Assembly (NCBI GenBank): GCA_000091205.1 | Contig: AP006494.2 | Length of the DNA: 64,000 nt | Reading direction: 5' to 3' (one strand) | Source of the DNA: Cyanidioschyzon merolae | Lineage: Eukaryota | Part shown: positions 1 through 40,340 of the stretch, one piece after another | How the letters are laid out: each line of letters starts with the position of its first letter | How positions within the stretch are numbered: the first letter of the stretch is position 1 | Translations under genes and position numbers: made by a program | Notes under the pieces: model-generated | Database searches by the model: none | What the model saw: only the letters and a program-made list of their open reading frames with translations | Told to the model about the DNA's origin: nothing

Positions 1-541
1 CTGCAACCACGATACATGGTTTCGCACCGAAGCCGAAGCGCATACGCTCCGCCTCGCCACCGTACCTGCAATATTCTATCGCCCTACCATCGTGGCATTT
101 TGGCGCACCTTCCCGTACATTTGGGCACGCTCTAGTAAGTGCGACAGCGATGAACACCAACACATTAGCCGCATTGTCGCTCAAATCATGAGAAGGCTTC
201 CGTATGCATCATATAACGCATTTGCCCTGGGCGAAAGAACGTTACCCACATTATTTCTAGTCAGAGTGCAGAGCCGAACGAAATTTTCATGATCAGAGAT
301 GGAAAACTGGAGGACTCGATCCGAGCTTGCGACCTAGCCCACAACGCTTTATATGCCGCTGCAATGATCTTTGTATTTACAAAACATGGAAGAGCAGCGG
401 GTACAACTTCCCATGCACGATTGGTGAAGGAAAGGCCTCGAGCGATCGCGTAAATGTACTAATCCATGTAAGTGCAATGGCGTAAATACCCGTTTCCTTA
501 AAAATTACGCCGGAGACGAAACTCGCGAGTCAGCTATGTGC

Positions 542-1819
542 CTATCGCGCTGGTGCCGAGGCCAGATCTGGTGTCCATCGAGGAGATACTTGTTCTGCTC
601 GCTCAGCATCGCGAAAGACCTTCTCGCGCAACATATCCAGCAACAAGTTGGGTACATGGTCAGCCCCATCTCCAATGACTTGCTTCTGTTTGGCCAGGAG
701 CTGCTCTAACATGTGGCGCAGTGCAGTCTCCAGCTCCGCTGGTGCCTGTGGAGCCGACACGGCCGCTCCTTGTGACTCTCCATGCTCAGAGTCTGTATGA
801 CGTGTCGCTTCAGTGACTGCGGATGCTTGAACAGCTCGCCGTCGGCTACTCAGCGAGGTTGTTCCAGGTGCCGCAATACGCAGCGCACGTGCGGCTCGCG
901 AGCTCTGCTTCGCATGTTTCCGCGTGCCACTAGACGAAGACTGGGAAGCCGTGGGCTGCGTAACACAAGTTTCGACAGTACTCCCTCGATCGGTCCCCTC
1001 TAGGACGTAGCCTATCGTCTGTAGCTCCTCAGCGGTGAAAAGAGCACATAATCGCGTCGCTCTCAGTTTGCGAGGCATTCGAATCAACTGCGAGTGGAAG
1101 CTGTTCCTAACGAGTAGTACAGCATCTTCAACCGCTTTCTGAATCTCTGAACAACAAAGTTCGACTTCCCGTTCAATATTCTTGATTTCCAACGCTTTCT
1201 TCGAATAGTCCATGGCTTCGTTCACCGCGAAAGCACAGAGCGGACCAATACCTCGAGAGACGCAGAGCGCTGCGTTCGCAACGGTCGTTTCCAGCGCCGC
1301 GCGCCCCGCAGCCTGCCCGTACGGCTGCACGCACGATTCGCTGCGTGCGCGATCTGCGGGCTCTGCGCCGTACGCCACCGTGCACGCGCCGCCGGGCGCT
1401 GCACGCTGTGCACTGGACGCCTCCAGGTGCAGTTTCTCTTGGCCTGCGTGCGAAACTGTGCCTGGAACTGCCGTATCGGTAAGACTTAATGATTGAACTT
1501 GTCGTTCACTCGGATGGAGTGTCTTCACCGGACTGGAACGCTGGAGAGGTTCCGCTCCGCGTTGCATATCAGGGCGAGCCTGGGGCGTACTCGGAATCAG
1601 CTGCAATCGAGTACTTTGGGGAAAATCTCCAGCTGGTGCCCTGTGAGACGTTCGAAAAGGTTTTTGAGCTTGTTGAGAAAGACGGCGCTGATCGAGCTGT
1701 TCTTCCGATTGAGAACTCATTGGCCGGAACGATCCACCGCAACTATGACTTGTTGCTCCAGCATCAACTCCATATTGTCGGTGAGGTCGACTTTTGCGTG
1801 CGACACTACTTGCTGGCAC
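542..1819 (-). CDS. Hypothetical protein. The true CDS may be shorter, for example starting at Met ~1213 (MDYSKKALEIKNIEREVELC...). The N-terminal 200 aa are low-complexity and overlap the prephenate dehydratase start on the other strand.
   Basis: Long ORF in the six-frame track. The C-terminal half looks helical/coiled-coil. No family recognised. The 5' part overlaps a strong + strand gene (1489..2514) and a + strand GC-rich ORF. Confidence 0.3.
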   Translation of the reverse strand: MPASSVARKSRPHRQYGVDAGATSHSCGGSFRPMSSQSEEQLDQRRLSQQAQKPFRTSHRAPAGDFPQSTRLQLIPSTPQARPDMQRGAEPLQRSSPVKTLHPSERQVQSLSLTDTAVPGTVSHAGQEKLHLEASSAQRAAPGGACTVAYGAEPADRARSESCVQPYGQAAGRAALETTVANAALCVSRGIGPLCAFAVNEAMDYSKKALEIKNIEREVELCCSEIQKAVEDAVLLVRNSFHSQLIRMPRKLRATRLCALFTAEELQTIGYVLEGTDRGSTVETCVTQPTASQSSSSGTRKHAKQSSRAARALRIAAPGTTSLSSRRRAVQASAVTEATRHTDSEHGESQGAAVSAPQAPAELETALRHMLEQLLAKQKQVIGDGADHVPNLLLDMLREKVFRDAERAEQVSPRWTPDLASAPAR

Positions 1820-2514
1820 TTGAGGGCGTCGAGTTGAAAGATGTGCGCGTTGTCCAGAGTCATCCGATGGCGCTTGCGCAGTGTGAAAAGTTCCTGTCCG
1901 AAAACGGACTTACCCGCGAAGTAGCGCTGGATACTGCAGGCAGTGCACGTCTCCTGCGCGATAAGGGCTATCGGGATCGTGCGGCTATCGCAGGGGCTCG
2001 TGCCGCGCAAATCTACGCTCTGAATATCTTGCGTGAAGATATAGAGGATGAACCTGAGAACTTCACGCGTTTCCTGATTCTGGCGCGAACGCCTTGCGCA
2101 GCGCCACCGCTTGGGGTACCGGCCAAGACATCGATCGCCTTCTCGCTGATCAACACGCCGGGAGCCCTATTCAAGGCGCTCTCGGTCTTTGCTCTCCGAG
2201 ATATTGATCTTACCAAAATTGAGTCCCGCCATTTGAGGTCCCTTCGACATCTGCGTTCCCGGGAGAGCGCGCAGCTCCGTGCAAGTTCGACGAACGGTAG
2301 GTCGGATACGCTTGCGTCCATTGCCAGCAGGGGAGTATCGGACAACGCCGACGTGGAGAACGTTCCAGATCGGCGTCGATGGGAGTACCTTTTTTACCTG
2401 GACATATCTGCCAGCCTCGCGGATACCAAAACGAATAACGCGCTTAACCACCTCGCAGAGATTACGACTTTCATCAGGGTACTGGGGAGTTACCGGCGTC
2501 ATTTGGCCGAGTAA
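1489..2514 (+). CDS. Prephenate/arogenate dehydratase (PDT domain plus C-terminal ACT-like domain)
   Basis: VAYQGEPGAYSE...VLPIENSLAGTIHRNYDLL...VVQSHPMALAQC are classic PDT-domain signatures. The C-terminus (SIAFSLINTPGALFKALSVFALRDIDLTKIESR) is an ACT regulatory domain. Assignment rests on established motif knowledge. Confidence 0.8.
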   Translation: MIELVVHSDGVSSPDWNAGEVPLRVAYQGEPGAYSESAAIEYFGENLQLVPCETFEKVFELVEKDGADRAVLPIENSLAGTIHRNYDLLLQHQLHIVGEVDFCVRHYLLALEGVELKDVRVVQSHPMALAQCEKFLSENGLTREVALDTAGSARLLRDKGYRDRAAIAGARAAQIYALNILREDIEDEPENFTRFLILARTPCAAPPLGVPAKTSIAFSLINTPGALFKALSVFALRDIDLTKIESRHLRSLRHLRSRESAQLRASSTNGRSDTLASIASRGVSDNADVENVPDRRRWEYLFYLDISASLADTKTNNALNHLAEITTFIRVLGSYRRHLAE

Positions 2515-3629
2515 TGCATCGCCTAGTTCTCGGCGAAGGACTCGCATTGAACTTGTGGAACGCAGCGGATGCACGCAAAAGCCATGCGTCTTCTCCGCTA
2601 CAGCGTCCTGATCCGGTGCAGCGTTCGCGATATCGATTCTTGGCCGAAAACTTGCACAGCTTCAGACACGCTTCATCGCTCAAACGCGAATGAGCAAGAG
2701 CGGCCACGTCCGCTGCTCCTCGGTTTGATCGCTGGCCCCGATGACCAGGGGTTCCCTCCGCCCCAACCGCCCGTGTCCAGTTGCACTGCACGTAGGGACG
2801 TCCTTACGCTAATACGCGGGCCCTTGGCACAGAATCCATGGCGATTCTCAGCGTCCAGCGCGACCTCTTACGTTGTTGCCGACAGCGCGGCCGTATATAA
2901 GCACTGTGTCGCGCTCACAACAACAGCAACACCAACGCGTCCATGCTCATGTAGATGCCTTTTCGGCGGAGAAATTCGTCTACGGCCACCGATACATTTT
3001 GCGTAAAAGCATATCACAGAAAGCCCATCGCAAGTCTCGAACCTGAAAAGCCATCCAAGGTCCTCCATAGCCTCCGACGTAAAGCATGCCACAAGCACAT
3101 TGCGTGCTGTCGATTGGAGCACCTCGACAAGCAGCACGCATCCAGCTTTCGTGCGACCTCTAGGCGCCGCAAGCAAGGCCACGTTGCTGTGAAACTGCAC
3201 TGAATTCATGCAATGCCCGCGATAGACGCTGCACCTGTTGGGTTATCGGACAAAGGAAGCCTCAGCCTATCAAAAGGAGACTCATCTGGTGCTAGTTGAA
3301 CGTAGAACGCGCTGTGGAGAAACTGCAATACCTGTTGGGACGCCGTATTCGCGCCACCTCGGGTGCCGGGTTCAGTCGACGCACGACACGCACATTCGAC
3401 GCCTTCCGAGAATCGCGTACCGCTGCGCACCGCCGCGACGCTTCACGCCAGTCGCTGGACGCTGGGGCGGCGGCTTCCATGGACTCTCTGTCCGCTTTGC
3501 TGGGAAGCGGACACCGCGGCGGCGGCGGCGTCGATCAAAATCCTTGGGGTGGTACCCGGGTTTGTCGGCGGCGTCCGGAGCAGAAGCAAAGTCAATTCTG
3601 ACGTTGTGCTTTACGCGTGAACACTGCGT

Positions 3630-5705: not shown

Positions 5706-6378
5706 AACCGTGCGGCAAACGCGTGTACGTTCATTTTATCCCAGATCTCAGCACTGGGTACAGCGCTACTGTTCGGCATGCGGCGGCGTTCCTGGCCCAG
5801 AGCCTGGAGGCAGTCCATTTGCACGACGTTGCGGCGATACCGCAGTGCACGCTCGGTTCTTTTCGACTAGTTTCGAGCGTAAGCGGTCCTCAAGACTTGA
5901 AACATAAACAGGAGCGTTATTGAACTCGAGACACGACGCGCAGTGCCACTGCTGGCGAGCACAACGACGCTGTGCCAAGAGCACCGCCACGTCCCGCGGC
6001 GTGCGGTGCCATGCTAGGCAGCCGCCTCTGCGACCGCCCACTCTCCAGACAGTGCAGTGGCCACGCACAGCACTTGTTGCGATCGTCCTATGCTTTGTTC
6101 GTTCTCCTGTAGCGTATTGGCTCGATGATCCTAACCAGAGTGTCCAGATCTGCGAAAATCACTTGCTTCGGAGCTATAATAGCGCCGGCTCCCAAAATTT
6201 CGCCCGCGTTCCCGCTCCTGAACAGTGCCATACTTTTAGCGACTGCAACACACCGCCATGCACATCACAACGTCTCCGCAGACAGTAGTCGTCATCCGGA
6301 TCCCGTTGCACACGGATGCAGTGCAGAGGAACGATGCGCGCACCAGCAAACGCCTTTCAGAAAGCGAACGACGCCAGC

Positions 6379-6660
6379 GGTGTAGAGTAGTGGCGGCAAC
6401 CGCGCCCTGGACAATACGTCTCCAGCTTAGGTGCAGACGCCTCCTCGTCTTTCTCGACCGGCCACCTACTACTGCCTCCAACTTTTTCTCATATAGTTCC
6501 ACTTTGAGTGATTGTCCGACAAAATTCTCTCTGGTCAGCTCCGCAGGTCTTGTATCCATCATTGCACCAAGCCCGGAGACTAACCAACAAGTCACTTGCG
6601 GCCTTCCGAGAAAAGATAACGAATTAACGGTACATTAACGAAGAAGCAACACCAATAGAG
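6379..6660 (-). mobile_element. Solo 3'-tail fragment of the TnpB/Fanzor-like element family, truncated at the RuvC-III region where the LINE-like element begins
   Basis: Minus-strand translation ...PAELTRENFVGQSLKVELYEKKLEAVVGGRSRKTRRRLHLSWRRIVQGA matches the copy-1 tail ...PPEWTRENFIGQPLKVELYAKKFEEVVCGRSRKTRRRLHVSWRRFVYGA. Upstream, only FVN of the NRDFNAAINI motif remains. Confidence 0.55.
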
Positions 6661-9600
6661 GACTCTACAATAGGAAAAGAGACCCAACCAGATACGGAGA
6701 GGGAGGCACAAAGGCCTCATGATCCACCTAGATGCAAAATAACCAGAGAAAGCAGCTCAGGAAAGAGCCCGAAGAAGAAGAAGGCCAACGAGAAAAAATA
6801 GATGAATAGAAAAAAGAACTCCCGAACGAGCCCATCACAACTTGTTCCCCGAAAGAGCACCCCAGCAGGAACTCAAGAAAGCTGCCGCCAAACCAAGTCA
6901 CCTACTCACAGCGCTGAAGATGCGAAAAGCCGTGCATACAAATCTTTAGACCAATTGGCACGCGAGTATGTAGATGGGAATCAGAAGATTGCCAGAGAGC
7001 TGGGACTGCTTGCACCAGAACGTAACAGTTGCAAACCTCAGTACCTGAAACGACGTACCAAAACTCGGATTGATGAATGCCACCGACTCTATAAAATCGT
7101 CAACCGCACCGCCATACGCGCCAACGCCGGAGACAAGGAAGCGAAGGCAGCGCTACCGGTGCCACAGGCGCAACATGAAGAAGCTATCAAAAGAAAGAAG
7201 AAACTTTCCAGAGAAGACAAACGAGAGGATCGAAACCGCAGAATCGCCTCCCTGGCGAAATCTATGTTGGAGAGCACCAACGAAGATGAGACCTGGCGCT
7301 ACATTCGATCGAGACTGGACCCACCAAAAAGTGCTTGGGGCTCACACCAATCGTTTATAAGAAAGCGCTGAGGACGGAGAGTGCCTCAGTGAATGAGGCC
7401 TGGACGGACCACGGCACAGAATTACATGAAGACGCAACTGGGCACTGCCAAGACAGAATCTATTGGCACCAATGTGCTGCCAAACTACAGCGCCTCGAAC
7501 CGGTACCGGAATGGAACGACCCAATCTTCTGGCCTGAATCTGTTCGGACCCTGCTATGCTCAAGCAACCGCAAAACACCTGGCATCGACGGTATCTCTGC
7601 GGAGTGGATGATACTGGTGACCCCAGAAGACGGGACAACAGGGACACCATCGATACCAGATGAACTTGACACAAGCTTAGGCAAACGCCTTTTGGAGCTC
7701 ATTCAACGCATGTTTGAAGAGGCGTACATCCCGGATGTATGGAGGACTGCCGAGGTCGTACCGATCCTCAAAAAGGACTCCCACACATACACAGACATGA
7801 ACATCTACCGGACTATGCGCCTCATCCCGTCAATCATGAAGCTACTTTGCGCCATGCTCACGAACCGGATCCAGAGGCGCCTCGAGGAACGCAAGTTCTT
7901 CGCCCCAGAACAGGCTGGATTCCGGAGCCGCGAGGAGTGCATGAGCCATGCCCTGACCCTCATTGAAGTGGCGCAACGTCGCTTCATTAGCGACCAACAA
8001 CCAGCTTACGTATGCTTCATCGACTTCCAAAAGGCCTTGGACCCGGTCCCGCATGAGGCTCTATTTCTGAAGATGCAACGAGCCGGAGTCTCCGGAAAGT
8101 GCTTAGCGTTCTTCCGTGCGCTCTATGCAGACTCGTGGATGCGCATCCAACTGGGCGACTGCTCAAGAACCCCTTCCATAAGAATCCACCGTGGACTGCG
8201 ACGGGGCGACCCCACATCCCCGCTCCTTTTCAAAATCTTCATCAACGATCTGCTGAACATCTGCAGACAATACGGGCTTGAGGTGCCGTGGATAGACTGT
8301 GGAGATGCCCGATGAGGAGCCCTCACATAGGAACCGCCTCGCAGGCCGTCTATTTGCGGACGATGTCGTGCTGTTGGCACCCGCCCCGGGAACGCTTGCG
8401 GCTAGCATGGAACAAGTCAGCGCCTGGGCCGATCGCTGGGAGATGAGCATAGGAGCATCGAAGTGCGGCGTCATGGTCATCCATGGAGACTCGCAGAGCA
8501 TTCGCAATCGCTCGTGGCGGTTGCAGAATCAGGAAATTCCGATCGGGGAAAAATATCGCTACCTGGGGGTCTGTCTCACGCCGACGCTCGACGAAAAGGC
8601 ACACGTTGACGAGATGATCGCCAAGATGCATAGACGTACAGCGATCGCACGCCCAGTCCTATCCGACCTATCCCCTTAGCAATCCGTACCAGGGCACTAA
8701 GGATGTGTATCATCCAGCCTGCGACCTGGGGTGCTGAATGGTGCGGCATGAAGCACCCAAATGCCTCGCGTCTGCAGACAGCCGCCAACAGGGCAATGCG
8801 ACTCGTTGTAGTTGGATGCTCAATGCAGAGCAGAGCAACCAACCCGCTGGCACTCGGACTTGAACTCCAAATAGCCTCGATAGAAGCGATAGCGGCAGGC
8901 TGCCGGGCACGCATATGGGCCAAAAGGGCCCACCATGTACACCTGGTTCAGTCGGAGTTTCATGCAGACCCCAACGCACCGCAAAAACACTTGGATGAAA
9001 TCAACGCAGATTTGGCTGAAGCGCCTCTTAGGAGACAACACGCTCCAATCGTTCCCCAGAAATATAGAATTCTCCCGTCTCCTGAAGCGAACGGTCCAAA
9101 CAACAGTACGGGAATGTAGACATGCAGTCAGTCGCGCGAGTGACGCCGGCTTGACTCTATACTGGAACTACAACCTAGCATACACATGCAAGTACTGGTG
9201 GGAGGCGCTGGGGTTCCCGGGACTTGCTCGCGGCAGCCAGTGGCTCGCCAAAATCCGCGTTGGTGGCTTCTGGCTGGCACCGGCTCTAAGCCGTATAGGA
9301 ACACCGGAATCGCACTGGGAATCACACTGTCCCTGCTGTGGAGACGAGATCCCCGAGACGATGACATATTTAGGCTTACAGTGCCCGCGCTGGAAACAGG
9401 AGCTGGACGTCACCGTGATATTCAAAGGCCGGACACTCACTTTGAGTGTAGCACTGGCAACTGATGGTCTGTTAACGGAGCCTCAGCGCTCATTAGTTGC
9501 GAACAAACTCACACTCTACCTTCTAGGCGGAAGGTCCAGCGAATCGGATGCGCACACGGGCCCAGTGCTCTCTGCGCCTACCTACTGGTGGGTGTCAAGC

Positions 9601-10030
9601 AGAAACCCGCATTGCCAACCGACAACAACGCATTCCATGCATGATCACGAAGGAGAGAGGCGGCTCCCAGGATTCATTCTAACAGTCAAGTTTCTCCAGC
9701 GTGTCGTGCGGCGAAGACAAGCCTGCATCCGCAGACTATCCAAGCACAAACTGACGATGAGACCGGATTCTACGTCGGGTGAACCATGCCTCGAGCCGAC
9801 GCCCTCTGTGGTATGGAAAAGCCGTTCTGTCTCCGTGCAGCGACCGCACCGGCGCTTTAGGCGCCATTGCTGTCGCTTTCGGCAGGCTCGGCACACGATA
9901 GGACGTATGAAACGACCAGAATATCCAAAACGAAGTACAGGTAATGTAACTTGAGTGTAAGGGGTTGATGGATACCTCACCGCGCACTGAAAAAACACAA
10001 AAAGAGAGAAAGAAAAGAAAAATGCGCACA
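6660..10030 (+). mobile_element. Degenerate non-LTR (LINE-like) retrotransposon: basic N-terminal ORF, RT domain, CCHC-like knuckle, A-rich 3' tail
   Basis: ORFs 6802..7371, 7335..8315, 8299..8679 and 8935..9954 are collinear but in different frames. RT motifs FIDFQKALDPVPHEAL and FADDVVLLAP (FADD box). The downstream ORF has HCPCCGDEIPETMTYLGLQCPRW. The element ends in the A-rich stretch 9990..10030. Confidence 0.7.
7335..8679 (+). pseudogene. Reverse transcriptase gene of the LINE-like element, interrupted by a frameshift near 8300
   Basis: The RT fingers/palm motifs are split over two overlapping frames (7335..8315 and 8299..8679). Confidence 0.65.
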
Positions 10031-10493
10031 ATCGGAGAACGCTGGCACAAGGAAACGTTTTGTTCATTCTAAAAATCGCACTCGTTAAGCGCACCTGGGA
10101 GATCAGGCGGTCACCTGACACGACGTGCATGTCGCCATTGAAGGGAAACGCGATCCTGATCAGGAGCGTACTGCTCTACTGTACAAAATTTTATTTGCGT
10201 TAAAGTCGTAGCAAAATACAGTTTTTCAATTCATTTGTGTTTCAACCCTCAAACAAGTCTAGTCAAGTGTTTGTTCGCAGTATATTATATAAGGGTTCAA
10301 AGAGCGTTCTTTTTCAAAAAACTAAAAAAAAGGAAACCTATGAAAAAGCAAGTCGACGATCCTGGAGGTCCAGGGCCGCAGGCTGCTAGAAAAAAACAAA
10401 AACACTGCCGAGTCCAGAAGAAAATGAAGAGAAGGAGGACTGAAAGGGGAGGCTCTACGTCGAAGGCGGCAAGAAAGACAACTGTACGACGAG

Positions 10494-12842
10494 ATGGTGG
10501 TGAAAGCCGGTCTTCTTGAACATATCAAGGATCCGTACAGGGAAAAGTTGCGAGACGCTATCAAAAAACGTCTCGATTCGTACTCCAAGAGTATTGTCAA
10601 GGCGTCGTCAGGACTGATGCATGTGACGAGGGAGATGTATGAAGACGTGACGCACATCGGAACGGTCGAGATTCCGGACGAGTTTTTCGACAAGACCTTT
10701 ATTCGTCATGTGATGCTTGGTACAGAGGAAGCACGGAAGGAAAATGAGCTAGTGCATGCCCTCCACGAAAACTTCGCGGAATTCCGCTTCGAGGGCACTC
10801 GGTACAAGGGTGACTCGGATATGTACACATATGGGGCAATGAAGTACATTACGAACCTGAAGAACCATTTGACAGAGAACCTCGAACGTTTCATGAAACG
10901 CGTCGTGTTTGCACTCTACCCAGGCATCTCTTGCAATGGAAAATGGGCGATTATCAATGGCATCACGAACGATCGAAAGTATGAAGATGAGATCGAATTT
11001 GTCGACAGGAAGGCGCCGAGAGTGAGCGCGAAAGAAGCTTCTGCGATCCGCGCGGTTTTACAAGAGCATCGTGCGCTACTGGGGCTGGCGAATCCAACAG
11101 ACAAGATATCAGAGTTGAAAAAAGATAAGGAAAGATACTATCGCCTCGTCCTGCGGTATTTCGTGTTTCTGGATCGTTAACTCGAACGCTAAGCGGAGAT
11201 GAAGCTGAGTGAAGAGACAAATGAAGAGTGGGAGAGACGGAAGGCTTTCCTAATGGGGAAGCGCTTCAACGGCGTTCCAATGTGCAAGATCAAGTCACAT
11301 TTTGTGACTATCGACTCCGCAGTCCTTCATGGCATCATGAAGGAGATCAGTCCGGAGTTCAGTGTCAGCAGGGAGGAATTCTCCGGTGAAAACCGGGAGA
11401 CGCACTGGAAGAATATCTTCGATTTCAAACGCCTCTAAGTAAGCAAACAAAGGGTATTTACAGGGTTGATCGAAACAGATGGAGTAGCCTTGTGTGTACA
11501 CTATCGGCGCTTGAAGACAGATCGTCCAGCACCGCCCGTTACGAAGGATGGAGAAAAGGAGGAGGCTGGTCCTGCGACACAGGAGGTGGAGGATAATGTC
11601 CTTGTCGTTGACGCGGCGAAGGATGAGGATCAGAAGGAAGCGGGTCTTGCGATGCAGGAAGTGCATGAGAAGGACCTTGTCGTTGACGTCACGAAGTATG
11701 AAGATGAGAAGGAGGCGGAACCTGCGATGCAGAATGTGGAGGATAACGACCTTATCGTTGATGCGGCGGAGCATGAGGAAAACAAAGAGGAGGATTCTGC
11801 GACGCAGGAAGTAGAGGATAACGACCTTGTCGTTAACGCGGAGAAGCATGAAGAAACCAAGAAGGCAGGTCCTGTGACACAGAAAGTGCAGGGTAACGAC
11901 TTTGTCGTTGGCGCGGACCCTGGGAATACGAATATTATAGCCGTCGCTGTACCCAAGCGTGCGGAAGATGGTGCTGACGGTAACTTGCGTCAGAAAGACA
12001 TGCGTCTGTTGAGGTTCTCGAGAGCAAGATACTATCGAGAATCCTGTATAATGAATGCGAGGAAGAAAATCGTCAAATGGAATTCAGGAATGAAAGATCA
12101 CCTGGAAGCTTTGAGCGAGGTGACGAGTCGAGGAGCGGACTTTAAAGCTTTTCGGGAGTTCATGAAAGTTCGCGTTGCCCATTGGGATGCACTGGGGGAG
12201 GAGTATACCAAGCCCCCGGTGGGCTCGTTTGCGTATGAATTTGTATTTTGGGAAGCAGCGGGCGTTCGCGAATTTTTTCAATCAATTGAGTGCCCTGAAG
12301 GATGATGAAAGTCAGAGGCTCGTAGTAGCGTACGGGGCAGGGCAATGGAAGACCCAAAAAGGAACTACGCCAGCTCCAACGACGAGGGTGTACAAGGAGT
12401 GCGCAAGGCGTTTTGTTACAATACCTGTAGATGAGTTCCGAACATCGTATACACACCACGACTTGGGGTGTACACTTCAGAGCGTGGAGTTAGAAAAGTG
12501 CCCGCGGAGCCTTGAGGATATAAAAAAGTATGGACCGCTGACGGTAGAGCAAAATGGAAAGGATGTCGAAAGTTCGTGGACTACTTGCATTAATAAGTAG
12601 AACCAGTGATGGTAAGAAACGTATGGAGTTTGTGAACCGAGATTTTAATGCCGCTATCAATATAAGGAAATGTGCGGTGCTGGAGAATAGACCTCCAGAG
12701 TGGACAAGAGAGAACTTTATTGGACAACCTCTCAAAGTGGAACTATATGCGAAAAAGTTTGAAGAAGTGGTGTGTGGCCGGTCGAGAAAAACGAGGAGGC
12801 GTCTGCACGTCAGTTGGCGACGATTTGTCTATGGCGCCGGCC
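10494..12842 (+). pseudogene. TnpB/Fanzor-like nuclease gene, originally about 780 codons, broken by two in-frame TAA stops (11178, 11193) and at least two frameshifts (about 12200 and about 12560)
   Basis: Pieces are 10494..11180, 11199..11438, 11466..12305, 12175..12600 and the first 96 codons of 12554..14959. Where copy 1 reads FLDR*LER*AEMKL, copy 2 reads FLERELERQAEMEL, so these are point nonsense mutations, not introns. Confidence 0.6.
11580..11885 (+). repeat. Four tandem 75-bp (25-aa) acidic repeats ([14 protein letters not shown]...Q) inside copy 1, directly abutting RuvC-I
   Basis: Units [25 protein letters not shown] / [25 protein letters not shown] / [25 protein letters not shown] / [25 protein letters not shown] are followed by [14 protein letters not shown]. 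Copy 2 has a single unit. Confidence 0.8.
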
Positions 12843-12889
12843 GCTACTACTGCACGCCGTTGGCGTCTTTCGACTTTCGAACGGCGTTG

Positions 12890-14959
12890 ATGATGCCCTG
12901 CGTTCGTATGAGGCGTTCGTTTTCGAAAATAGCGCTGTGTTCCGCTGCGGCTTTTGTTTCGTCTGCAACGGTGCTGTTGCTTGGCGGGTATGACTCGCGA
13001 TGGTACACCCCTTTGGTTGCGAGAGCGCACTCGGCTAGCGTGGCGTCTGTGGACCACGGGCCGTTGCCGGTGCTCGAGACGCCACCGCGTCGTCACGCGC
13101 AGCTGCGAGTGTTAAAAGAGAGCGGCATGCGTTATGAATCTGTCCAAAAACGGAAAGCCGAAGCTGGAGGCGACGGCTCATCAAAAGAGGCTATGAGTGC
13201 AGTGGTACCGAGCGCTTTGCCGGAAGACGGCCTCTTCGATATTCTCGTCGTTGGTGGCGGCGCGACCGGCTCCGGCGTTGCACTCGACGCAACGCTCCGT
13301 GGACTCCGAGTTGCTCTAGTAGAGCGGAACGATTTCGCGTCTGGCACGTCGTCTCGTTCGACGAAACTCATTCATGGTGGTGTCCGGTACTTGGAAAAGG
13401 CGTTCTTTCGTGCTGACCCTGCGCAACTAAAGCTCGTCTTCGAAGCTTTGCATGAGCGAGCGATCATGCTCCGTCAAGCGCCTCACTTGACACAACCGCT
13501 GCCGACGATCCTGCCGTGTTACAAATGGTGGGAGATCCCATTCTATTGGGCTGGGCTCAAGGCCTACGACTTTCTGGCCATCGCAGGCAATGGCGCGCTC
13601 TATATGAGCAAGTTCCTCTCGGCGGCGGAAGCGCGGCGTCAGTTTCCGACCCTTTCAGCGCGCCGTGGCCGGGACGGCGCCACCCTCAAAGGCAGTATTG
13701 TGTACTACGATGGCCAGATGGATGACGCGCGATTCAATGTGACGCTTGCAGTGACGGCGGCGCTACACGGGGCAGTGATTGCAAATCACACTGAAGTTTC
13801 GGGCTTGATCAAGGATGCCTCAACTGGAAAGGTCATTGGCGCAACAGTTCGTGATCGTTTCACCGGAGAAGAATTTCCGGTCTACGCGCGAGTGATTGTG
13901 AACGCAACCGGCCCGTTTGCGGATCGGATACGAGCGATGGACGAGGGACCTGAGGCGCTCGGTCCCCAACGCATGATAGTTCCGTCATCTGGGGTGCACG
14001 TTACTCTGCCCAGTTACTATTCTCCGGAAGGCATGGGTTTGATTGTACCAAAAACGCGCGACGGTCGGGTTGTCTTCATGTTGCCATGGTTGGGATCGAC
14101 AATTGCCGGCACCACGGATTCAAGCACGGAGATTACGGACATGCCACGTCCGCATGAGGCGGAGATTGAGTTTATCTTAGACGCGCTTCGTGATTATCTG
14201 AACGTGGAAGTGCGTCGAAAGGATGTTCAGAGCGCATGGAGTGGTATTCGACCGCTTGCAATAGACCCCAAAGCGAAGGACACACAGAATATCCTTCGTG
14301 AGCACACAGTCCACGTCTCTGGCTCGGGTCTGCTGACCATCGCGGGTGGCAAATGGACGACTTACCGAAAAATGGCACAGGACACTGTGGATACTGCTAT
14401 CAAAGTTGCAATGTTGGAGTCTCGCGTGAAGCACAAGTGCTTGACAGAGAAGGTCATCCTCACCGGAGGTCATACTTATGACCCGTCGTATTTCGCTTTT
14501 CTCACGCAGCACTATGAAAGAGTGAAATACTCTGTCAGTAAGGGTGCCAAACTCCAGACCACGACGCTGGACGTAGACATAGCGCAACATCTTGCTCGAG
14601 CCTACGGAGATCAAGCTTACAAGATCTGCGATATTGCGAGCAGGGAAGATGCTGGTTACGGCAAACGCATTGCGCATGGCTACCCGTATATTGAAGCAGA
14701 GGTCGTGTACGCAGCTGAAAACGAATACTGTGAGACAGCCCAGGACTTTTTGGCGAGACGCTCGCGTCTTGCGTTTCTGAACGCCCGGGCGGCGAAAGAG
14801 GCGCTTCCCCGCATCGCTGAGATTCTCGCTGAGATCCACGGCTGGAGTCGCACCCGCTTGCAGACGGAAATGAAGGAGGCAATGGAGTTTCTCGAGACGT
14901 TTGAGTCCGGTCGTACGACTGGTGAGGTCGGTGAACAGGTTGAAGCAGTGGCCGCATAA
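12890..14959 (+). CDS. FAD-dependent glycerol-3-phosphate dehydrogenase (mitochondrial GPD2/GUT2-type), about 690 aa
   Basis: DILVVGGGATGSGVALDATLRGLRVALVERNDFASGTSSRSTKLIHGGVRYLEKA is the FAD/GlpA-family N-terminus. Start placed at the in-frame MM at aa 113 of the ORF-track ORF 12554..14959; the upstream 112 codons belong to the transposon tail. Confidence 0.82.
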   Translation: MMPCVRMRRSFSKIALCSAAAFVSSATVLLLGGYDSRWYTPLVARAHSASVASVDHGPLPVLETPPRRHAQLRVLKESGMRYESVQKRKAEAGGDGSSKEAMSAVVPSALPEDGLFDILVVGGGATGSGVALDATLRGLRVALVERNDFASGTSSRSTKLIHGGVRYLEKAFFRADPAQLKLVFEALHERAIMLRQAPHLTQPLPTILPCYKWWEIPFYWAGLKAYDFLAIAGNGALYMSKFLSAAEARRQFPTLSARRGRDGATLKGSIVYYDGQMDDARFNVTLAVTAALHGAVIANHTEVSGLIKDASTGKVIGATVRDRFTGEEFPVYARVIVNATGPFADRIRAMDEGPEALGPQRMIVPSSGVHVTLPSYYSPEGMGLIVPKTRDGRVVFMLPWLGSTIAGTTDSSTEITDMPRPHEAEIEFILDALRDYLNVEVRRKDVQSAWSGIRPLAIDPKAKDTQNILREHTVHVSGSGLLTIAGGKWTTYRKMAQDTVDTAIKVAMLESRVKHKCLTEKVILTGGHTYDPSYFAFLTQHYERVKYSVSKGAKLQTTTLDVDIAQHLARAYGDQAYKICDIASREDAGYGKRIAHGYPYIEAEVVYAAENEYCETAQDFLARRSRLAFLNARAAKEALPRIAEILAEIHGWSRTRLQTEMKEAMEFLETFESGRTTGEVGEQVEAVAA

Positions 14960-16519
14960 TGACGTGAGCGCAGAGCGTATGTATTTCAAAAGTATCATCT
15001 TCTTGATCGACGAGACTGGCAAGTCACCTTGGTAACTAGGAGCGAGCGCGTGCCCTTTTACCCAGTCCCTGGTTCCAAACTGGAAACGATCGGGCGTACG
15101 GATGGATTTCGTATGCGTTGAACAGCGTCGCTGGTGCTTAGGCTTGGAGCGTTCGTCCTCATGAGCTGCTGAATGCTCTGCGATCAAGATATCTGTAAAC
15201 ATATCGTGCATGAGTGGCTGATCATGCGTGGCACCGAGAGCGCGCTGCAGCTGGATGAACCTGGAATCGACAAGCTGCGGTCTAGCTTGCACGCGGTGCC
15301 GCGCTAGAGTATCCTGGGTTCTTGGCAGCTCTCGAAACTGAGTTTGTACTGGACGGGAGACTCCCGAAGGCGGACACGTTAAGAAAAAGTAGCTCGCTGG
15401 CTGTACCGGACATTGACACTGCTTTTCCTGTTTCTCAGTGCCAAGAAACGAGTAATAGACAATAACGCGCATTTCCCTGAGTTGCTATCGTGGTTTTCGG
15501 CACCAGGCTGAGCCGACGGCTGAACACACGAGCACGACAGTTGACCCTGCTCCCAGAATCCTGTGCATCGATGCATCACCGCTGCGCTGCGCACTTGTTC
15601 GCCATCATTTCTTCTCGGGATCGAGCGCATTCCCAGGCGCATCTTTCGCTTGAACATGCCAGTCGCAGTGCAGTAACGAAACTGCATGAAATGGACGCGC
15701 ATGGGAAGCGCGATGTTCACGAGAGCGTCGTCACGCGCTGCGCCTTGTCAAAGGCAGATGCGATCAGTAACGCGACAAACGTTTTACGATCGTGGAGTAT
15801 GTCTATATATGTGTAGACCCGCCCCTAGACGCCCCCCGGCCTTTTGCGACCGGTCTCCTGTTATCCGCTTCAGTCTATGCAGACACACTTCGCGCCTGAG
15901 AGGCTACACCATGGAGTTGGATGGACCCAGCTCCTTGGGTCTCGTCTACAGAATCACACATCCTCTGATACCGATTGCGGCGTTGACTGCTCTACGTTCA
16001 CGAAGTCCTTGCGTGCAGTTCTGTTAGTTGAACTCACTATTGCAAGGGTTGCGAGGACATGTGCCCTCTGTGCCACTACAGTCTCCTGTACCTCCACTGT
16101 TCTTCTTCTTGTTTGTCACTTGCTCTCCTTGGCTCTATGGTCGGCGAGTAGAGGATTTTTCGGTTTTTTAATCGAACCCGGCGCCACCGGGCCTCCATGA
16201 TCTTTGACTTTTATATTTGTAACTTTCACTTAGATTATTTATTCTTTTTAAATGAACGCACTTCGAGAGCATCTGTTATAAACCGCGACAAAGAACTTGG
16301 TGACGCGCATCTGAGGGATGGAACACAATTCAGATGAAAGACCGCAAGTGTGCACAACGAGTGCAGTTCGTTTGTGCGCGGGGCCCTTTGGAGGTAACTG
16401 GTACAATATGTATTCTTTTCTTGCGTATTTCAGAGCAAACGATATGTCTGTTCGCACCATCGCATCCGCGCATGCGCCTTCGCGGAATACCGGGTTCAGA
16501 AGCTCTTCTCCTTTATCTT

Positions 16520-17990
16520 TTGGGACGAAATAGACAACTCTTCTAGTCTTTTAACTCAGTTTTGGTCCGCGCACGCTGAATGGAATAGAATGCTATTTGG
16601 TAGTGGATAGCACGAGATCGACGTCAAGATGCAATGCACCCTATAGATCGCAGACGAATTCAGTATAGGATATGTATTCTATGCTGACCAGTACACGGAG
16701 CACTGGATTCCTCTTTAAGATCAGTGATACTACAGTACTCTGATGGTTGAGGAACACTGAACGAAAGAAGTGCATGCGCTCTGGGACAAGAACCAATATG
16801 CCCACGGCGTGCTTGCGATCAATGCTAGGAAACGACCCGTTGATCACTTTAGGGAACGTAAAAGTGCCGATCGTAGTCGCCACGGGCGTCTCTGTTTCTC
16901 AAAGGCTTGTTTGCGTGCTCCTGGAAACACCGGGATACAGTCGCCTAGAAGAATCCCAGCTCACTCACTACCACCATCCACCGAAAGCTGAACGACAGCG
17001 TTACGGGAGCGTTGCGATCTGTGTAGAGTACAGGGACGTCGATGGGTCCCAGTCGATGAGACATCCCTCGGAAGATACCATCGAAGCGTATAAGGATATT
17101 CGTGGAGCAGGGCACCTATTGTGCGCACCATCAAACTCGAAGAGACTAACGACATCATCGACTTTTCTAGCAGCAGTGGACTCATTTGGCAGCCTCACTT
17201 TCGCTGCTAGAGAAGCTCCATCTAACAGCACCAAACTCTTTGCCGAATCATTGAAGACTTTTCCCTGACGTCCGGCGACGTCATTCTATTAAACAACATG
17301 GAATTTTACCATTCCACTTGCGTCCGAGTATTTGCCCGTACTCTCGAAGTGTAGAGCTGGTTTTCACACCCGAGTACGCTCCATGCTTCAACCCATCGAA
17401 GGAGTGTTTTCTGCTGTGAAACGTAATGATCGCTCCATCGGGCGAATTGCTGACGCGTTCTCAGCGCACGGCGACGCGGGGACACATGTGGCCTCTCTTG
17501 CACAAGTCCTACCTCCTCCGGTGATGTCCTCACCGACGAGCATAGACAAGTGCGTTCATTTGAAGAAATAAAAAATCCAAGGGAAAGTCATGTAAATGGA
17601 AATCGAAGATCCTAGAGAGGCATCATCGCCGAGTTCGACAAAAAAATCCTCTTCTCGCCAAACATCAAGCGAAGAAGAACGACTGAGAAAGGAGAAAAAG
17701 AAGAAGAAGGCAGGAGATAGACCAGAGAAATGCTTGCCTAACCAGGCGATGACGAGATTGTGGCGCCACAGCGAGCACGACTTCTAGCAATCCTTGCATT
17801 GGTGAGTTCAACCGGCGTCAATGCACGCAAAGAGCTCGTGAACCGAGAATTCAACGTCGCCATCAGTATCAGACGATTTTTGGTGCTGAAAACGAGACCC
17901 ACGGAGCTAATGCGATCCAACTTCGTGGGCAGCCCCTCAACTTCGAAGAAATACCTGAATAAACTGAAACCGATTGCAGGCGGGCGGGGG
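16520..17990 (+). mobile_element. Composite dispersed repeat, copy A (about 1.4 kb): 5' module with a DE(T/S)xF-like remnant, then the Fanzor-like 3' tail (17800..17990)
   Basis: Collinear about 70% nucleotide similarity with copy C (60520..61640) and with the reverse complement of copy B. It shares the 24-mer gccacgggcgtctctgtttctcaa with copy C. The tail translates ...KELVNREFNVAISIRRFLVLKTRPTELMRSNFVGSP...KPIAGGRGVRK. Confidence 0.5.
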
Positions 17991-18273
17991 GTCAGAAAAT
18001 GCCCGGAGGCGTCTACATGCGGGTATCTATATTTACTCTCTGTGGTCTTGAAACGTTTACCGTTTCAATGCTCACACATATTGCAACAGCCATATCGCGT
18101 CATCGCACAGGCGATGTGTCCATCGGCAACGCCTAGCTGTTGATCAAACGATCCGGCGGGCGCGATATGCCACCCTCGGAGTGCGATCAAACATCCAGGC
18201 TCACAGGCGGACGCTGCGAGTGTACTTCCCTCGCAAGCCGCTGAGGTGTGCCTAGCGCTCGCTTTGAAGCAGT

Positions 18274-21596: not shown

Positions 21597-22065
21597 GAGT
21601 TCAACAGATATGCGCAGCTCGTGCGCCCGATTTCGAATTGAAACGCTCCGAGATTCCGTTCTGCGGTGCTGTGCCCGGCGCCGCCCGGTACCCCTTTACG
21701 TGTGTCGACCCGGCGGCCGTTCAGGCGCTGCAAAGCGGGTGCATCTCTCCAGGGCACCGGATTTCCCTGTTTCGCAGTTTGTTGACACCCAGAAGGGATG
21801 TTTCCGTTTGGTCGCTTGATATCAGCGCTCGGAGTAGCATCCATCGTTCCTCGCCCTACTTCCAAATTCCACTACCGACAGTCGCCCTCAGAGGTGCTGG
21901 TGATTTTCCACCTTATATCGTGCGTCAAGTGCCCGTCGTGAGCGGCCTCGATAGCCTGTATAGCGCAAGCGCGAATACAGTACGTAAACGGAACGGCTTT
22001 GTCATACTGCTGAAGGCGTGGGCTCGAAGTACAGGGAGCGGGATGCACCACCGAGGCAGGCGTCT

Positions 22066-26544: not shown

Positions 26545-27399
26545 CGGCAGCTATATTGATCGACTGGCGCTGTGAAGCAGCAGCGCTTTGCTTTTGCTCC
26601 GTTGCTGATTCTGCTGCGGAAACGTTGACGGACGCGTCTCAATGCTTGTTCATCGAATGGGCGCATTAGTCGCTGCTCTGACATACAACACAGATTCCCC
26701 ATGTTGTTCAACGTTGACGATGCATTCGATAGGGCAAGTGGCGGCACCCCGGAGACCCGCCTCCGCGCAATGGCGTGCATGGACCGCGTTCTTGATCTTG
26801 CCAATCAATGAGCTTCAGCGTGTGTCGCAGTTCATGGATGAGTGCCGATCGACAAGAAAAAGTTCAAGCCATACTCATTGACGTATCCGTAAATGTCACC
26901 GCATTCGGAATCTCTCGAAGCACAAGAAAGCAAAATCGCATCCGGGAGATGCTGGTTCGATCCATCGAGCTCAAGTCACTTTACTTGCAACGCCAATACG
27001 GACACCGTCTGGCATAGCAGAGTCCCGTCGACGGCAGACAGGCTGTATTCTATGCACCAAATCATGCCACCAGCGCCGAAGAGACCCATTCCAGCGTCTG
27101 GTGTACGACGTCTCGAAAACCGAGGTCATCCGTGATGCGGCAAAGCCGTTCCGCTTCCGTCTGCGCCCGCAGCAGGTACTCACGGCAACTTCAGCACCTG
27201 GAGGATCATAGGAATGAACCATGATCCTTAAAGGAAAGTATGGGTGGTTGCTGGTGAAGAGCTTTACGATCAAGTGAGCCATAACTGACGTTCTCCTGGA
27301 CGTCGATGGCCATGGAGCACAATCGAGGATGCCCAGGTTCCCGTGAACGATGCGACATCTGCATTTGCACACATGTCAGTGAAACAAGAAATGTCCCAC

Positions 27400-28900
27400 G
27401 ACCACTTATTGTAAATGAGTACCACAAGCGCACACGCCTCACAGCTTTTTCTGACCGGCCGCCTGCAATTAGTTTCAGTTTCTGCTTGTACACATCGAGC
27501 GTGAGAGGCTGCCCCACAGGTTTGCCTCGTGTCAGCTCTGCGGCTCTTTTCTGCAACACCACAAATCGTTTGATATTGATGACGGTGGTAAAGTCTCAGT
27601 TCACGAACTCCATGCGGGTATTTTCTCTGGGAGAACCTATCAGTGGAAAGAGTCCTCGAACTCGTGCCATTTTGTGCGGTGGCAGCTATACGCGCTTTTC
27701 TATCGCGAAAGCGCTCCGCTGCCCTCTCTCGAACTCGAACTTCTATAGCATACATATCAGCTCATTCCCTGTTTTTTTGCATGAACTACTTCTTCATGCC
27801 CTTCGGTGAGGACGTTCCCGAAGGAAGCAGGACTTGCGGAAGAGAGACCGCATGTGTCTCGGTGTAATCGCGTGTCTCCGTGTGTTGAACGCTTCAGCGA
27901 TTCGCCCAGTGGAGCGATCGTCACGTTTCATAAAGACAATGCTCATTAGATGCGGTTGAACCACGGAGTGTATAGACGAACGTAAAGCAGCTCTATTCTC
28001 GGATAGATTCGGCAAAAGCTCGAACGCGATTGGAACGGTTAGATGCGACGTCGCCCAATAGAATGACGTCGTCACGGTTCTCGAGACAAGTGTTCAATGA
28101 TTCGACAAAGTGGTTGGTGCTGTTGTATGGCCTTTCTCTACGGGCGAAACTGAGTCCGCCAAATGAGTCCACTAAAGCTAGAACAGATGATGATGCCGTT
28201 GGTCTCTTCGCGTTCGATGGTAGGCACAACGGGCGCCCTGCCCCGCGAATACCCATGTACGCTCCGAGCGCTTTATCCGAAGCAAGTCTCATCGACTGGC
28301 AAAACAAATCGACGTCCATGTGCTTCATTCGGATCGCAACGTTCCAGGAACTTTGCTGTGGGTGTGATTTCGGTGGAAGATGGCCGTACATGACATTGGT
28401 CGTCTTTTTTGTTACTGTATCCCAGTGTTTTCAGGATCACACGAACTAGCCGCCGAGAATCAGAGATGCACGTGACGACTATAATCCTCTGCTTTGCTTT
28501 CCGTGAGGTAATCAAGGAGTTAATTTTTTGTACAATTCATCGCAAGCAGTCTTCAAGATTGTCGGTTTTCGGCACGGAGCACATATACTTGTTTCTTTCA
28601 GTGTTCATCAAGCATCAGCGTGCTGGAGCGTGACGAATCTGAAGGAGGCAAAGCAGCACTCCCAGCGCTCTACAGTAAAGAGTATATATCCTACCGGAAA
28701 TTCGTCTACGATCTATCGAATACATTGCATCATGATGTCGACCGCCTGATGTATATTGTGAAAAAGCATCCGATTCCATACAGCGGGATGAAAGTAATAG
28801 AGTTGAAACACTGGAGAAGAGAATGAGCGGTGGCACTCATAAACGCTGCACTGCGCTCGATGCGCGACGCAACAGCGCGGCGTCGACGTCATCTGCAGTG
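27400..28900 (-). mobile_element. Composite dispersed repeat, copy B (minus orientation), ending in the Fanzor-like 3' tail (27400..27620)
   Basis: Minus-strand translation ...RMEFVN*DFTTVINIKRFVVLQKRAAELTRGKPVGQPLTLDVYKQKLKLIAGGRSEKAVRRVRLW. The upstream module matches copies A and C (for example KRDDRSTGRIAEAF vs KRNDRSIGRIADAF, and ...RRFVLPVDETCFG). Confidence 0.5.
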
Positions 28901-31900: not shown

Positions 31901-33774
31901 AAGAGAAAGACTTCATGTTGAGCATGGATACCAGGTTCAAGGGCATCGCAGCCGTTACCATTCCACTTATTCAAGAGGACGGAGCCAAAGACGTGAAGAG
32001 AAAGCAGAGGAAGCCGCTGAAGTTTTCTGGGGCTTGGTATTATCGGGTGTCGATCATAATGGACTCCAGGAAGCATAGCAATAGGTGGAATGTCGGCATA
32101 CGGATCCACCTGCATGTTCTGAGAATCATGTTGCGTTGAAGCAGGGGCGTTGCTTTGTGTGTTTCAGTTGGAGAGTCGTTGAGCGTGCAGATAGCACGTA
32201 AGGACCCCCTTTGGCTGGTTAGCATGCGATTGCGCCAGACTCGCCAGCGGTTTCGGTTGTGCATAAGTACAAAGCGTGAATTCGCCAACTTGTGCAGTGA
32301 GTCGGAAAAGCAAAAGACAGAGAAGGCGCGTCGTTTAATCGGAGCCTATGACGCTGGACATACTGTAACGCACGGGGGCTGGTTTCCTGCGCCTTCGACA
32401 TGACGCGGCAACGCGTGAAAGAATCGATTCTGCACGATTCGCATCCATGAATTAGGGACGATTTACGCGGATCTTGGATACATATCCAAGCTGAAACTCG
32501 TCGAGAAGAAGAACGTGAAACAGAGCAAGGTGCACGAGATGGTATTTGGTTAGCTGACTGAACATCAGATTGCGAGCCAGTTGAAGGTGACATGCTTCCT
32601 TGCGCTCGATTCCGCTGGGAACAATGCGCGCAAGCACTTTCTGCACTGGGACTTGAACCCCTCGATCAGCCTACGGAAAGCACTGGCGCCTATGGAGCAC
32701 TCAGCGGTTTTTTGTCCAGCGAGTTTTCGCGGCAGTCTTTTCGTACTCAGGGTAAGCACGGGGCAGAAATGCCGTAGACGTGCAGAGAAAAAAACGAGTG
32801 GCCAGGAGAGCGCATTGGATTACCGCCTGAAGTAATGCACTGGTATGGTACGATGTAGCAATGCAAAAAGCATACAGGACCGGATGTATACGCAGAGAAC
32901 GCCTCTTCTGGGCAATTGCTGGACACTCATGGTAATCCATTATTCGATAGGACAGCGTTTGCGTCTCCCATAGGAATGAGACGCTGCGCGATCCCAGCGC
33001 ACAGTGGAGACCGATTACTGTTTCCTGCTAGATGATGAATGCTACTGCCCCATTGGTCCGTGTTGTTGATTCGGAAGCGGCAAACGCTCCGATGAAAAGG
33101 ACCTGCAGAATCGCTATCTGAAGCGGAAAGGTTCTCGCGTGTTGCCGCTGTGCGGTGCAACGCAGGAGCTCTTCGGCGCGGCTGCTGCGACGGCCAAGTT
33201 TTTCCATTTGTTTCGCCGTTTCCGTGAATCGAGCACCTGCTGCACAAAAATTCCACACACCGGAATCGGACCTGGTGCGGATTATGAAGAGACCCTCAAT
33301 AACGAGGCGCGAATTGCTGGCGCTGCAAGCATTGCCGATCATTCCGTGGATTCGCTCTGAGCGGGAGTAAGCCGCTGGCGAGTCACATGGCCACTGTACC
33401 GCATACGACCTGCGACATCGAGTGACAAACGAGGTGCTTTACGTTTTCCACGGGAACCCGAGATCCATTCGATGCATACAGCCTGGCGCTGGGACAGCTT
33501 CAAACCCGCGCAATGGACCGGGTGCATCGACTAGGCAGTGGCCGCAGTTCTGCGTACGATTCGATGCGCTTTGCTGAACACCAATGTCGTATAAAGCGCC
33601 GATGGATAGCTGAGGTTTTCCGAGCAATCCGTTAGCGAGGGTCTTCGGTTTGCAGGCACGGGATATCCTAGTCCGTGGTGCATACTCCTGGCGAGTCTCT
33701 AGGCCGTTCGCGTGCTCGGCAGCCGCGGAGGTACCGCGCGAGGCACCGGTCGCTTTTCCCGCCAACCGTACGCA

Positions 33775-40059: not shown

Positions 40060-40340
40060 GTTACTGTACCACTGATGACTTCGGCTCGAGGCGCGGTCCA
40101 TCTGATAAGGGATCAGGATTCATGATCATTCTGGGATCCAGCGATCTGCGTAGGCGTTGCTGTGCCACTGATGACTTCGGCTCGAGGCGCGGTCCATCTG
40201 ATAAGGGATCAGGATTCATGATCATTCTGGGATCCAGCGATCTGCGTAGGCGTTGCTGTGCCACTGATGACTTCGGCTCGAGGCGCGGTCCATCTGATAA
40301 GGGATCAGGATTCATGATCATTCTGGGATCCAGCGATCTG
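40060..40340. repeat. Tandem repeat, approximately 90-bp unit x about 3.1
   Basis: The unit ccactgatgacttcggctcgaggcgcggtccatctgataagggatcaggattcatgatcattctgggatccagcgatctgcgtaggcgttgctgtg repeats three times. It lies about 240 bp upstream of the left end of Fanzor-like copy 2. Confidence 0.9.

Follow-up and report, generated by a model that had tools for sequence, protein, structure and literature searches.

The closest described system to the locus considered here is CMe-1A, a transposable-element family of the red alga Cyanidioschyzon merolae that carries Fanzor1, a TnpB-like RNA-guided nuclease of eukaryotes, and that was reported in 2013 by Bao & Jurka in Mob DNA (PMC3627910). The family comprises ∼150 copies in C. 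merolae, with ∼80% identity each to a consensus of 3169 bp, which encodes a protein of 734 aa, CMe-1 (PMC3627910). It lacks terminal inverted repeats (TIRs), its target duplications were given as undetermined, its mode of transposition was listed as unknown, and its vehicle was entered as “unclassified” (PMC3627910). The 5′ 635 bp of CMe-1A correspond to another repeat, the “unclassified” TE-N2_CMe, and the family was termed old, with intact proteins still encoded by some copies (PMC3627910). In PUl-1 of Pythium ultimum, a Mariner transposase and Fanzor1 are carried by one element (PMC3627910). The biochemistry and structures of Fanzor1 proteins followed in 2023–2024. Here, a 64,000-nt stretch of C. 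merolae DNA (GenBank assembly GCA_000091205.1, contig AP006494.2; hereafter the window) was analyzed, in which an earlier note, made from the sequence alone, had drawn attention to two broken copies of one gene, referred to below as copies A and B. These copies are almost certainly non-functional decayed insertions of CMe-1A, a multi-copy element of the C. merolae 10D nuclear genome with a single gene, which encodes Fanzor1.

Decayed insertions of CMe-1A

For comparison with the window by BLASTN and global alignment, the DNA consensus of CMe-1A and the sequence of the CMe-1 protein were obtained from the PMC3627910 supplement. Copies A and B were 86.1 and 79.7% identical, respectively, to the 2013 consensus, and the finding is therefore a rediscovery and not a new element. 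Genome and element are the same, and the divergence of A and B fits the ∼80% identity reported for the family. In copy A, positions 631–3169 of the consensus map to window positions 10060–12886 and are followed by ∼9 nt of a hairpin arm. Copy B has the TE-N2_CMe 5′ module of the consensus, whereas copy A has an inverted one instead and also differs by a five-unit repeat expansion; otherwise, there is no essential difference.

The open reading frame (ORF) listing and three-frame translation revealed one long protein, broken at differing sites, at ∼10.3–12.8 and 40.9–43.1 kb. When the window was compared with itself by BLASTN, the paralogous copies A and B aligned in two blocks, 10125–11429 with 40723–42037 at 74.5% identity and 11845–12693 with 42164–43009 at 73.5%. 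More sensitive self-alignment paired 10078–11613 with 40675–42231 and 11827–12836 with 42145–43153 at 71–72%. The frame-corrected translations of A and B were 51% identical overall (gaps counted) and aligned end to end except for a gap of 100 residues, which corresponds to the tandem repeat of five 25-codon units in copy A; copy B holds a single unit. The 25-codon repeat of copy A is acidic and lies in the linker before RuvC-I, and the number of units varies in metagenome relatives too.

The ORF remnant of copy A begins with an ATG at 10340, and the former stop position, 12830–12832, now reads TAT. Relative to the published consensus, copy A carries four in-frame stops (TGA at 10441; TAA at 11178, 11190 and 11436), four 1-nt frameshifts (10397, 10446, 12213 and 12551) and, at 11542–11916, a 75-nt tandem repeat that has grown by 288 nt in frame. 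Copy B carries six stops and 12 frameshifting indels. Within the window, both copies do nothing as genes. Differences between copy A and the consensus amounted to 11.1, 8.5 and 19.1% at the first, second and third codon positions, respectively, and to 20.6% in the non-coding parts, and 43% of the substitutions were synonymous compared with a random expectation of 22%. The skew was weaker in copy B (17.6, 17.2 and 24.6% at the three codon positions; 36% synonymous). Thus, part of the divergence predates the death of the copies and arose under selection on the protein, and the rest came after it. The TE-N2 part of copy B contains a 3 × 96-nt duplication (40057–40345), which is recent, given that its units are 98% identical.

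Part of what the earlier note had claimed for the two copies is sustained. Their paralogy and their place in the window were borne out by the self-comparison, and the extents proposed for them, 10045–12842 and 40577–43120, came close to the actual ones (10060–12895 and 39827–43214), which are wider. That both copies were dead, each through lesions of its own, is confirmed by the stops and frameshifts listed above. The consensus does encode a single intact ORF, that of published CMe-1A, but the product has 734 aa and not ∼780. An identity of 75–80% between A and B proved slightly too high (71–74.5% measured), and six further copies or fragments in the window had been missed. The view that the gene was active not very long ago fails because A and B are 14–20% diverged from the consensus; the family is also called old by Bao & Jurka. 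As a discovery, the locus carries little weight: element, protein, copy number and odd 5′ module were all published in 2013. Small additions to the description of CMe-1A are its zinc-finger-less close relatives, a conserved 3′ hairpin, older relatives linked to a DDE_3 transposase, and the recurrent adjacency of the tail of a long interspersed nuclear element (LINE).

CMe-1 as a Fanzor1 protein

Fanzor proteins are marked by DPG at RuvC-I and, at RuvC-II, by an alternative Glu that lies downstream of the canonical position, which is itself occupied by Gly or Pro (PMC10530073, PMC10711439). The corresponding motifs of copy A are given in Table 1; those of copy B are DTGNTNI (42235–42255; P mutated to T), TDEF followed by a stop (42747–42758) and NRDFNA (42951–42968). 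In an alignment of 33 sequences, made up of the CMe-1 consensus and 32 cluster representatives at 25–42% identity, D431 (GxDPG), G570 (AYG), E603 (DEFRT) and R671, D672, N674, A676 and N678 (RDxNAAxN) were invariant. At RuvC-I, both in these 33 sequences and in 81 relatives, D and G were invariant and P was nearly so. G570 and E603 lie 33 residues apart, which places a Gly at RuvC-II and a Glu downstream, just before the zinc-finger position.

Protein searches returned hundreds of fragments from hot-spring metagenomes at 60–85% identity, with at least 334 relatives in these metagenomes, and a few intact relatives (31–34% identity, ∼620 aa); a second protein search with a profile gave close fragments only. 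An exhaustive profile search yielded 3891 cluster representatives at E ≤ 1e-3 and 497 at E ≤ 1e-30, many of them 600–700 aa long and covering the whole profile. Searched against the PDB with phmmer, one reconstructed copy gave SpuFz1 alone, at E = 0.45, and profiles were needed. With the profile of the first relatives, SpuFz1 was the sole PDB match (E = 1.9e-8). The 33-sequence profile matched Fanzor1 chains only, with E values of 9.9e-22 for PpFz1, 5.6e-14 for SpuFz1 and 1.2e-11 for GtFz1, and its alignment to PpFz1, the Parasitella Fanzor1, begins at profile position 90, inside the N-terminal helical domain.

The fold was assessed on a relative 42% identical to CMe-1, P0124, and not on the window copies. 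Its AlphaFold model, calculated from an 81-sequence alignment, had a predicted local distance difference test (pLDDT) score of 88.9 and a predicted template modeling (pTM) score of 0.87; a model from an 8-sequence alignment (pLDDT 47.5) was discarded. The best seven Foldseek matches of the P0124 model were all SpuFz, PpFz or GtFz structures, with E values of 1.6e-17 to 7.5e-16 and template modeling (TM) scores of 0.5–0.7 over ∼690 columns. Cas12X, Cas12o1, Cas12f and Fanzor2 followed more than 10 orders of magnitude behind, Cas12f at E ∼3e-4 and Fanzor2 at 1e-3. At three levels, namely motifs, sequence profile and the fold of a relative, CMe-1 is a Fanzor1. Given that the profile aligns into the N terminus of PpFz1 and that the fold of the relative matches over its whole length, the N-terminal domain is normal for Fanzor1.

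CMe-1 resembles SpuFz1 (8GKH), PpFz1 (9CF0) and GtFz1 (9CER) in full-length REC/WED/RuvC architecture, in DPG, in the relocated Glu and in RuvC-III, but sequence identity is only 13–16%, and CMe-1 has no CCCC zinc finger in its NUC/TNB region. With prokaryotic TnpB (ISDra2) and Cas12f, it shares the RuvC fold and an ancestry among RNA-guided nucleases. At each of the points by which TnpB would be recognized (RuvC-I motif, RuvC-II Glu, size and Pfam OrfB_IS605/OrfB_Zn_ribbon), however, CMe-1 departs from it: TnpB has D-hydrophobic-G at RuvC-I and the canonical RuvC-II Glu (PMC10711439), where CMe-1 has DPG and Gly; prokaryotic TnpB proteins (IS200/IS605, IS607) have ∼400 aa compared with 734; and CMe-1 has no Pfam OrfB match above threshold.

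Several points weigh against reading the copies as remains of a Fanzor1 nuclease. Between RuvC-II and RuvC-III, CMe-1 has no CCCC zinc finger; YTHHELGC stands there instead, without a second Cys pair, whereas SpuFz1 and ISDra2 TnpB both carry the finger. Pfam gave no significant match on the window ORF pieces, the frame-corrected copy or the consensus: PF07282 (OrfB_Zn_ribbon) scored E = 0.33 on the reconstructed copy and had no match on the consensus at E ≤ 0.01, with 10 of the 33 relatives matching. For the element as a whole, we infer a guide RNA only from the conserved terminal hairpin described below. Finally, none of the copies in the window has remained intact, and nothing there can therefore be active.

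The earlier note had nonetheless recognized the protein class correctly. Its three motifs (DPGNTNI, the DEFRTS region and NRDFNA) occur in copy A and again at the corresponding sites of B, and its call of a TnpB/Fanzor-type RuvC nuclease in a eukaryotic genome agrees with the motifs, the PDB profile matches and the fold of the relative; the case is a useful check that a Fanzor can be recognized by reading motifs by eye. The structural comparison that it proposed led to Fanzor1 in all of the top seven Foldseek matches of the P0124 model, and the catalytic residues in question, D431, E603 and D672, are invariant among relatives. The N-terminal domain, which it regarded as a misfit, is indeed unlike compact TnpB but is ordinary for Fanzor1, by the PpFz1 alignment and the model of the relative.

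Absence of the zinc finger, 3′ hairpin and transposase-linked relatives

The CCCC zinc finger is part of the motif by which Bao & Jurka defined Fanzor1, a group in which they nonetheless placed CMe-1 (PMC3627910). Nearly all close relatives of CMe-1 are likewise without it, and their D-E-D triad is invariant. Both Cys pairs were kept in only six of 117 close cluster representatives, and at most two cysteines were found in the zinc-finger stretch of 101 of the 117; the degenerate finger had been correctly observed in the earlier note. Its absence is a trait of the clade and not a product of decay, because nearly every one of the nearest intact relatives shares it. In the literature, no comment on the absence of the zinc finger in the CMe-1 clade was found, and we do not claim that it has gone unnoticed. 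Within an RGLLWC motif, one Cys is conserved among the close relatives.

On its 3′ side, the element terminates in an imperfect hairpin of 15–20 bp, the arms of which change together between copies and subfamilies. Its outer arm reaches ∼9 nt past the end of the published consensus, which apparently stops short of the end of the hairpin by that length. Other hairpins were located at 18047–18069 in element D and at ∼27375–27400 (minus strand) in element E, two of the composites described below, and at metagenome loci L006–L085. Tests were made on 55 distinct copies, three from the window and 52 from metagenome loci. Over the terminal 55–60 nt, the mean folding z was −2.05, with 42% of copies below −2, compared with 0.02 for a coding control. 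Own arms paired better than swapped arms (−16.4 versus −14.1 kcal/mol; permutation p ≤ 2e-4), and 70% of the cells in the hairpin alignment were paired compared with 34–54% with slid partners, values that are inflated by the relatedness of the subfamilies. RNAalifold, applied to the raw alignment of all 55 ends, gave a single 4-bp helix only. Given that the two subtypes of end do not align in register, per-sequence folds and the comparison of own with swapped arms were used. Rfam and tRNA scans of the window found nothing. We treat the hairpin as real, and it may serve as a guide-RNA stem, a transposition signal or a terminator.

If intact, CMe-1 would be expected, by analogy with SpuFz1 and other Fanzors (PMC10432273, PMC10530073, PMC11423790), to act in the nucleus as an endonuclease that cuts double-stranded DNA under RNA guidance. 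Its predicted RuvC site would comprise the D of GADPG, the relocated E of VDEFRTS and the D of NRDFNAAINI. Nuclear import is predicted, the N terminus of the consensus being K/R-rich by eye. Transcription of the 3′ end of CMe-1A would yield the guide RNA, and for its transposition the element would depend on another enzyme. Family membership, host, decay of both copies, conservation of the triad across the clade and the Fanzor1 fold of a relative are established by the present analysis, and nuclease activity, guide RNA and mode of transposition are inferred.

Elements D, E and F are mutually ∼70% identical, and their left boundaries are blurred. Each is made up of ∼1 kb of decayed transposase and, behind it, a Fanzor gene with an internal deletion, and ends in a hairpin that differs in sequence from that of the CMe-1A copies. 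The frame-corrected consensus of the three transposases matched PF13358 (DDE_3) at E = 3.1e-11 (43.8 bits; cut-off 28.6), and a single copy reached E = 0.005 only. D, E and F form a second, older repeat family in which a transposase of the Tc1/mariner-IS630 type is joined to Fanzor. The Fanzor deletion breakpoints differ among the three (consensus 2851, 2737 and 2762), which suggests a longer ancestor with transposase and full Fanzor gene, as in Pythium PUl-1. In D, E, F and probably C, as in PUl-1, a DDE transposase precedes Fanzor on one strand. By contrast with PUl-1, D, E and F have each lost an internal part of the Fanzor gene, and an inverted-repeat search around A, B, D, E and F found no convincing TIR pairs and no TA duplications. 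The Mariner transposase of PUl-1 gave no significant match to the window by tblastn.

Tentatively, CMe-1 and most of its close relatives may represent a zinc-finger-less Fanzor1 branch with an invariant triad, a covarying 3′ stem-loop that would be a guide-RNA core and/or transposition signal, and older members fused to a DDE_3 transposase. If this possibility holds, the fusion in the older members would name the vehicle entered as “unclassified” for the CMe-1 family.

Neighborhood of the copies and rival explanations

LINE-like reverse transcriptase ORFs (6802–9954, plus strand; RVT_1) are contiguous, at the ORF for the C-terminal part, with TE-N2_CMe at 9517–10068 on the minus strand. The same contiguity of LINE and TE-N2 recurs at the metagenome locus L001 (4510–5675), where a 5′-truncated LINE abuts the Fanzor unit. 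Given that the two are contiguous at two independent loci, TE-N2_CMe probably constitutes, on the opposite strand, the 3′ tail of the LINE. In the window, at L001, at L062 and in the consensus itself, the 5′ start of the Fanzor unit directly adjoins LINE or TE-N2 sequence, which may have either orientation. Fanzor1c has been reported in association with LINE and Mariner/Tc1 elements (Jiang et al.), and the LINE and DDE_3 associations in the window therefore fit published patterns. Isolated TE-N2_CMe fragments occur at 21818–22027 (plus strand) and 27085–27175 (minus strand).

At the other side of copy A, the consensus end at 12886 lies 3 nt ahead of the annotated ATG (12890) of the mitochondrial G3PDH gene (BAM80805, 689 aa), and the entire proximal 5′ flank of this gene is thus transposon sequence. 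An 801-aa ORF (12554–14959) fuses the Fanzor C terminus to G3PDH and is also reported by metagenome (prokaryotic) gene callers; this fusion is a gene-caller artifact.

The degenerate zinc finger and the long N-terminal domain led the earlier note to suspect an undescribed Fanzor variant, and the blank Pfam result on the copies also speaks for one. A new lineage is very improbable, being refuted by the 2013 CMe-1A consensus, to which A and B are 86 and 80% identical in DNA over the full length; the clade of 3891 cluster representatives (E ≤ 1e-3) and the Fanzor1 fold over the whole length also stand against it. Hardly credible at all is a host origin, in which A and B would be segmental duplicates of a cellular gene or a gene that the host has domesticated, the 801-aa ORF included. 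A single ORF does run from the Fanzor C terminus into G3PDH, and its product is called in metagenomes, but annotated G3PDH begins past the end of the element, the flanks of A and B are unrelated, and both copies are full of stops. Moreover, at least eight copies or fragments are present in 64 kb, and the hot-spring metagenomes hold relatives in the number given above.

An unlikely alternative concerns how the family spreads: CMe-1A could be a passenger of the LINE-like retroelement, carried by read-through and 3′ transduction with target-primed reverse transcription, and not moved by a DNA transposase. LINE or TE-N2 sequence at the Fanzor 5′ start at the places listed above, the lack of TIRs or target-site duplications in the family, the solo 3′ end H, the conserved 3′ stem-loop and the reported association of Fanzor1c with LINEs are all consistent with such a route. 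However, 65 of 80 metagenome copies showed no 5′ truncation over the ∼1.1 kb examined, the LINE occurs in either orientation relative to Fanzor, and the older relatives are joined to DDE_3 and have internal deletions, typical of cut-and-paste elements. We retain the reading of A and B as dead insertions of CMe-1A.

Besides A and B, the window contains six further Fanzor-related copies or fragments, C to H (Table 1). Copy C (31702–32700, plus strand) keeps a single frame over ∼800 nt, with four stops and no frameshifts, and its motifs are eroded (MDTRF for ADPGN). A weak transposase fragment lies upstream of C at 30664–30737, and a composite possibly spans 30664–32688 (plus strand).

Table 1. 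Positions of CMe-1A copies, related elements and copy A motifs in the window
Feature	Position	Strand	Basis or remark
Fragment H, solo CMe-1A 3′ end (consensus 2950–3169)	6340–6567	−	82.7% identical to consensus, 79% to copy A
TE-N2_CMe (CMe-1A consensus ∼2–534), inverted, abutting start of copy A	9517–10068	−	Continues from LINE-like reverse transcriptase ORFs
Copy A, CMe-1A “Fanzor unit”, pseudogene	10060–12895	+	Consensus 631–3169, 86.1% identity; no direct 5′ TE-N2_CMe module
Copy A, Fanzor1 ORF remnant	10340–12832	+	Three-frame translation, alignment to the 734-aa CMe-1 protein
Copy A, 75-nt (25-codon) tandem repeat, five units, just upstream of RuvC-I	11542–11916	+	Tandem Repeats Finder (TRF), alignments; one unit in consensus and copy B
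Copy A, RuvC-I DPGNTNI	11916–11936	+	Catalytic Asp, Fanzor-type DPG; preceded by GA
Copy A, VVAYGAG	12322–12342	+	Canonical RuvC-II position, Gly for Glu; rearranged site described in PMC10530073
Copy A, DEFRTS (in VDEFRTS)	12430–12447	+	Alternative catalytic Glu; then YTHHDLGC replacing first zinc-finger CxxC
Copy A, RuvC-III NRDFNA(AINI)	12635–12652	+	
Copy A, 3′-terminal stem-loop	12858–12892	+	Folds, family-wide tests; 3′ arm holds G3PDH ATG (12890)
Fragment G	15862–16342	−	Fanzor 5′ leader piece 16156–16342 and weak C-terminal remnant 15862–16073
Element D, composite	16538–18101	+	DDE_3 ∼16538–17548, Fanzor N-terminal remnant 17548–17646, C terminus and hairpin 17760–18070
Element E, composite	27349–28821	−	DDE_3, Fanzor C-terminal ∼110 codons and 3′ hairpin; breakpoint unlike D and F
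Copy C, old divergent RuvC-domain remnant	31894–32688	+	∼35% aa identity to A; tblastn, six-frame hmmsearch
Copy B, full-length CMe-1A, pseudogene	39827–43214	+	Consensus 1–3169, 79.7% identity; 5′ module TE-N2_CMe
Copy B, Fanzor1 ORF remnant	40942–43149	+	Translation, alignment
Element F, composite	60571–61746	+	Third breakpoint; Fanzor remnant directly after transposase YSPWFN motif

Proteins encoded in the window are identical to C. merolae 10D BAM80803 (mitochondrial HSP70), BAM80805 (G3PDH) and BAM80806 (biotin synthase), and by these three exact identities the window is therefore C. merolae nuclear DNA. Eukaryotic genes without interruptions account for the window's large ORFs, among them those for mitochondrial HSP70, FAD-dependent G3PDH, Rab GDI and a WD40 protein.

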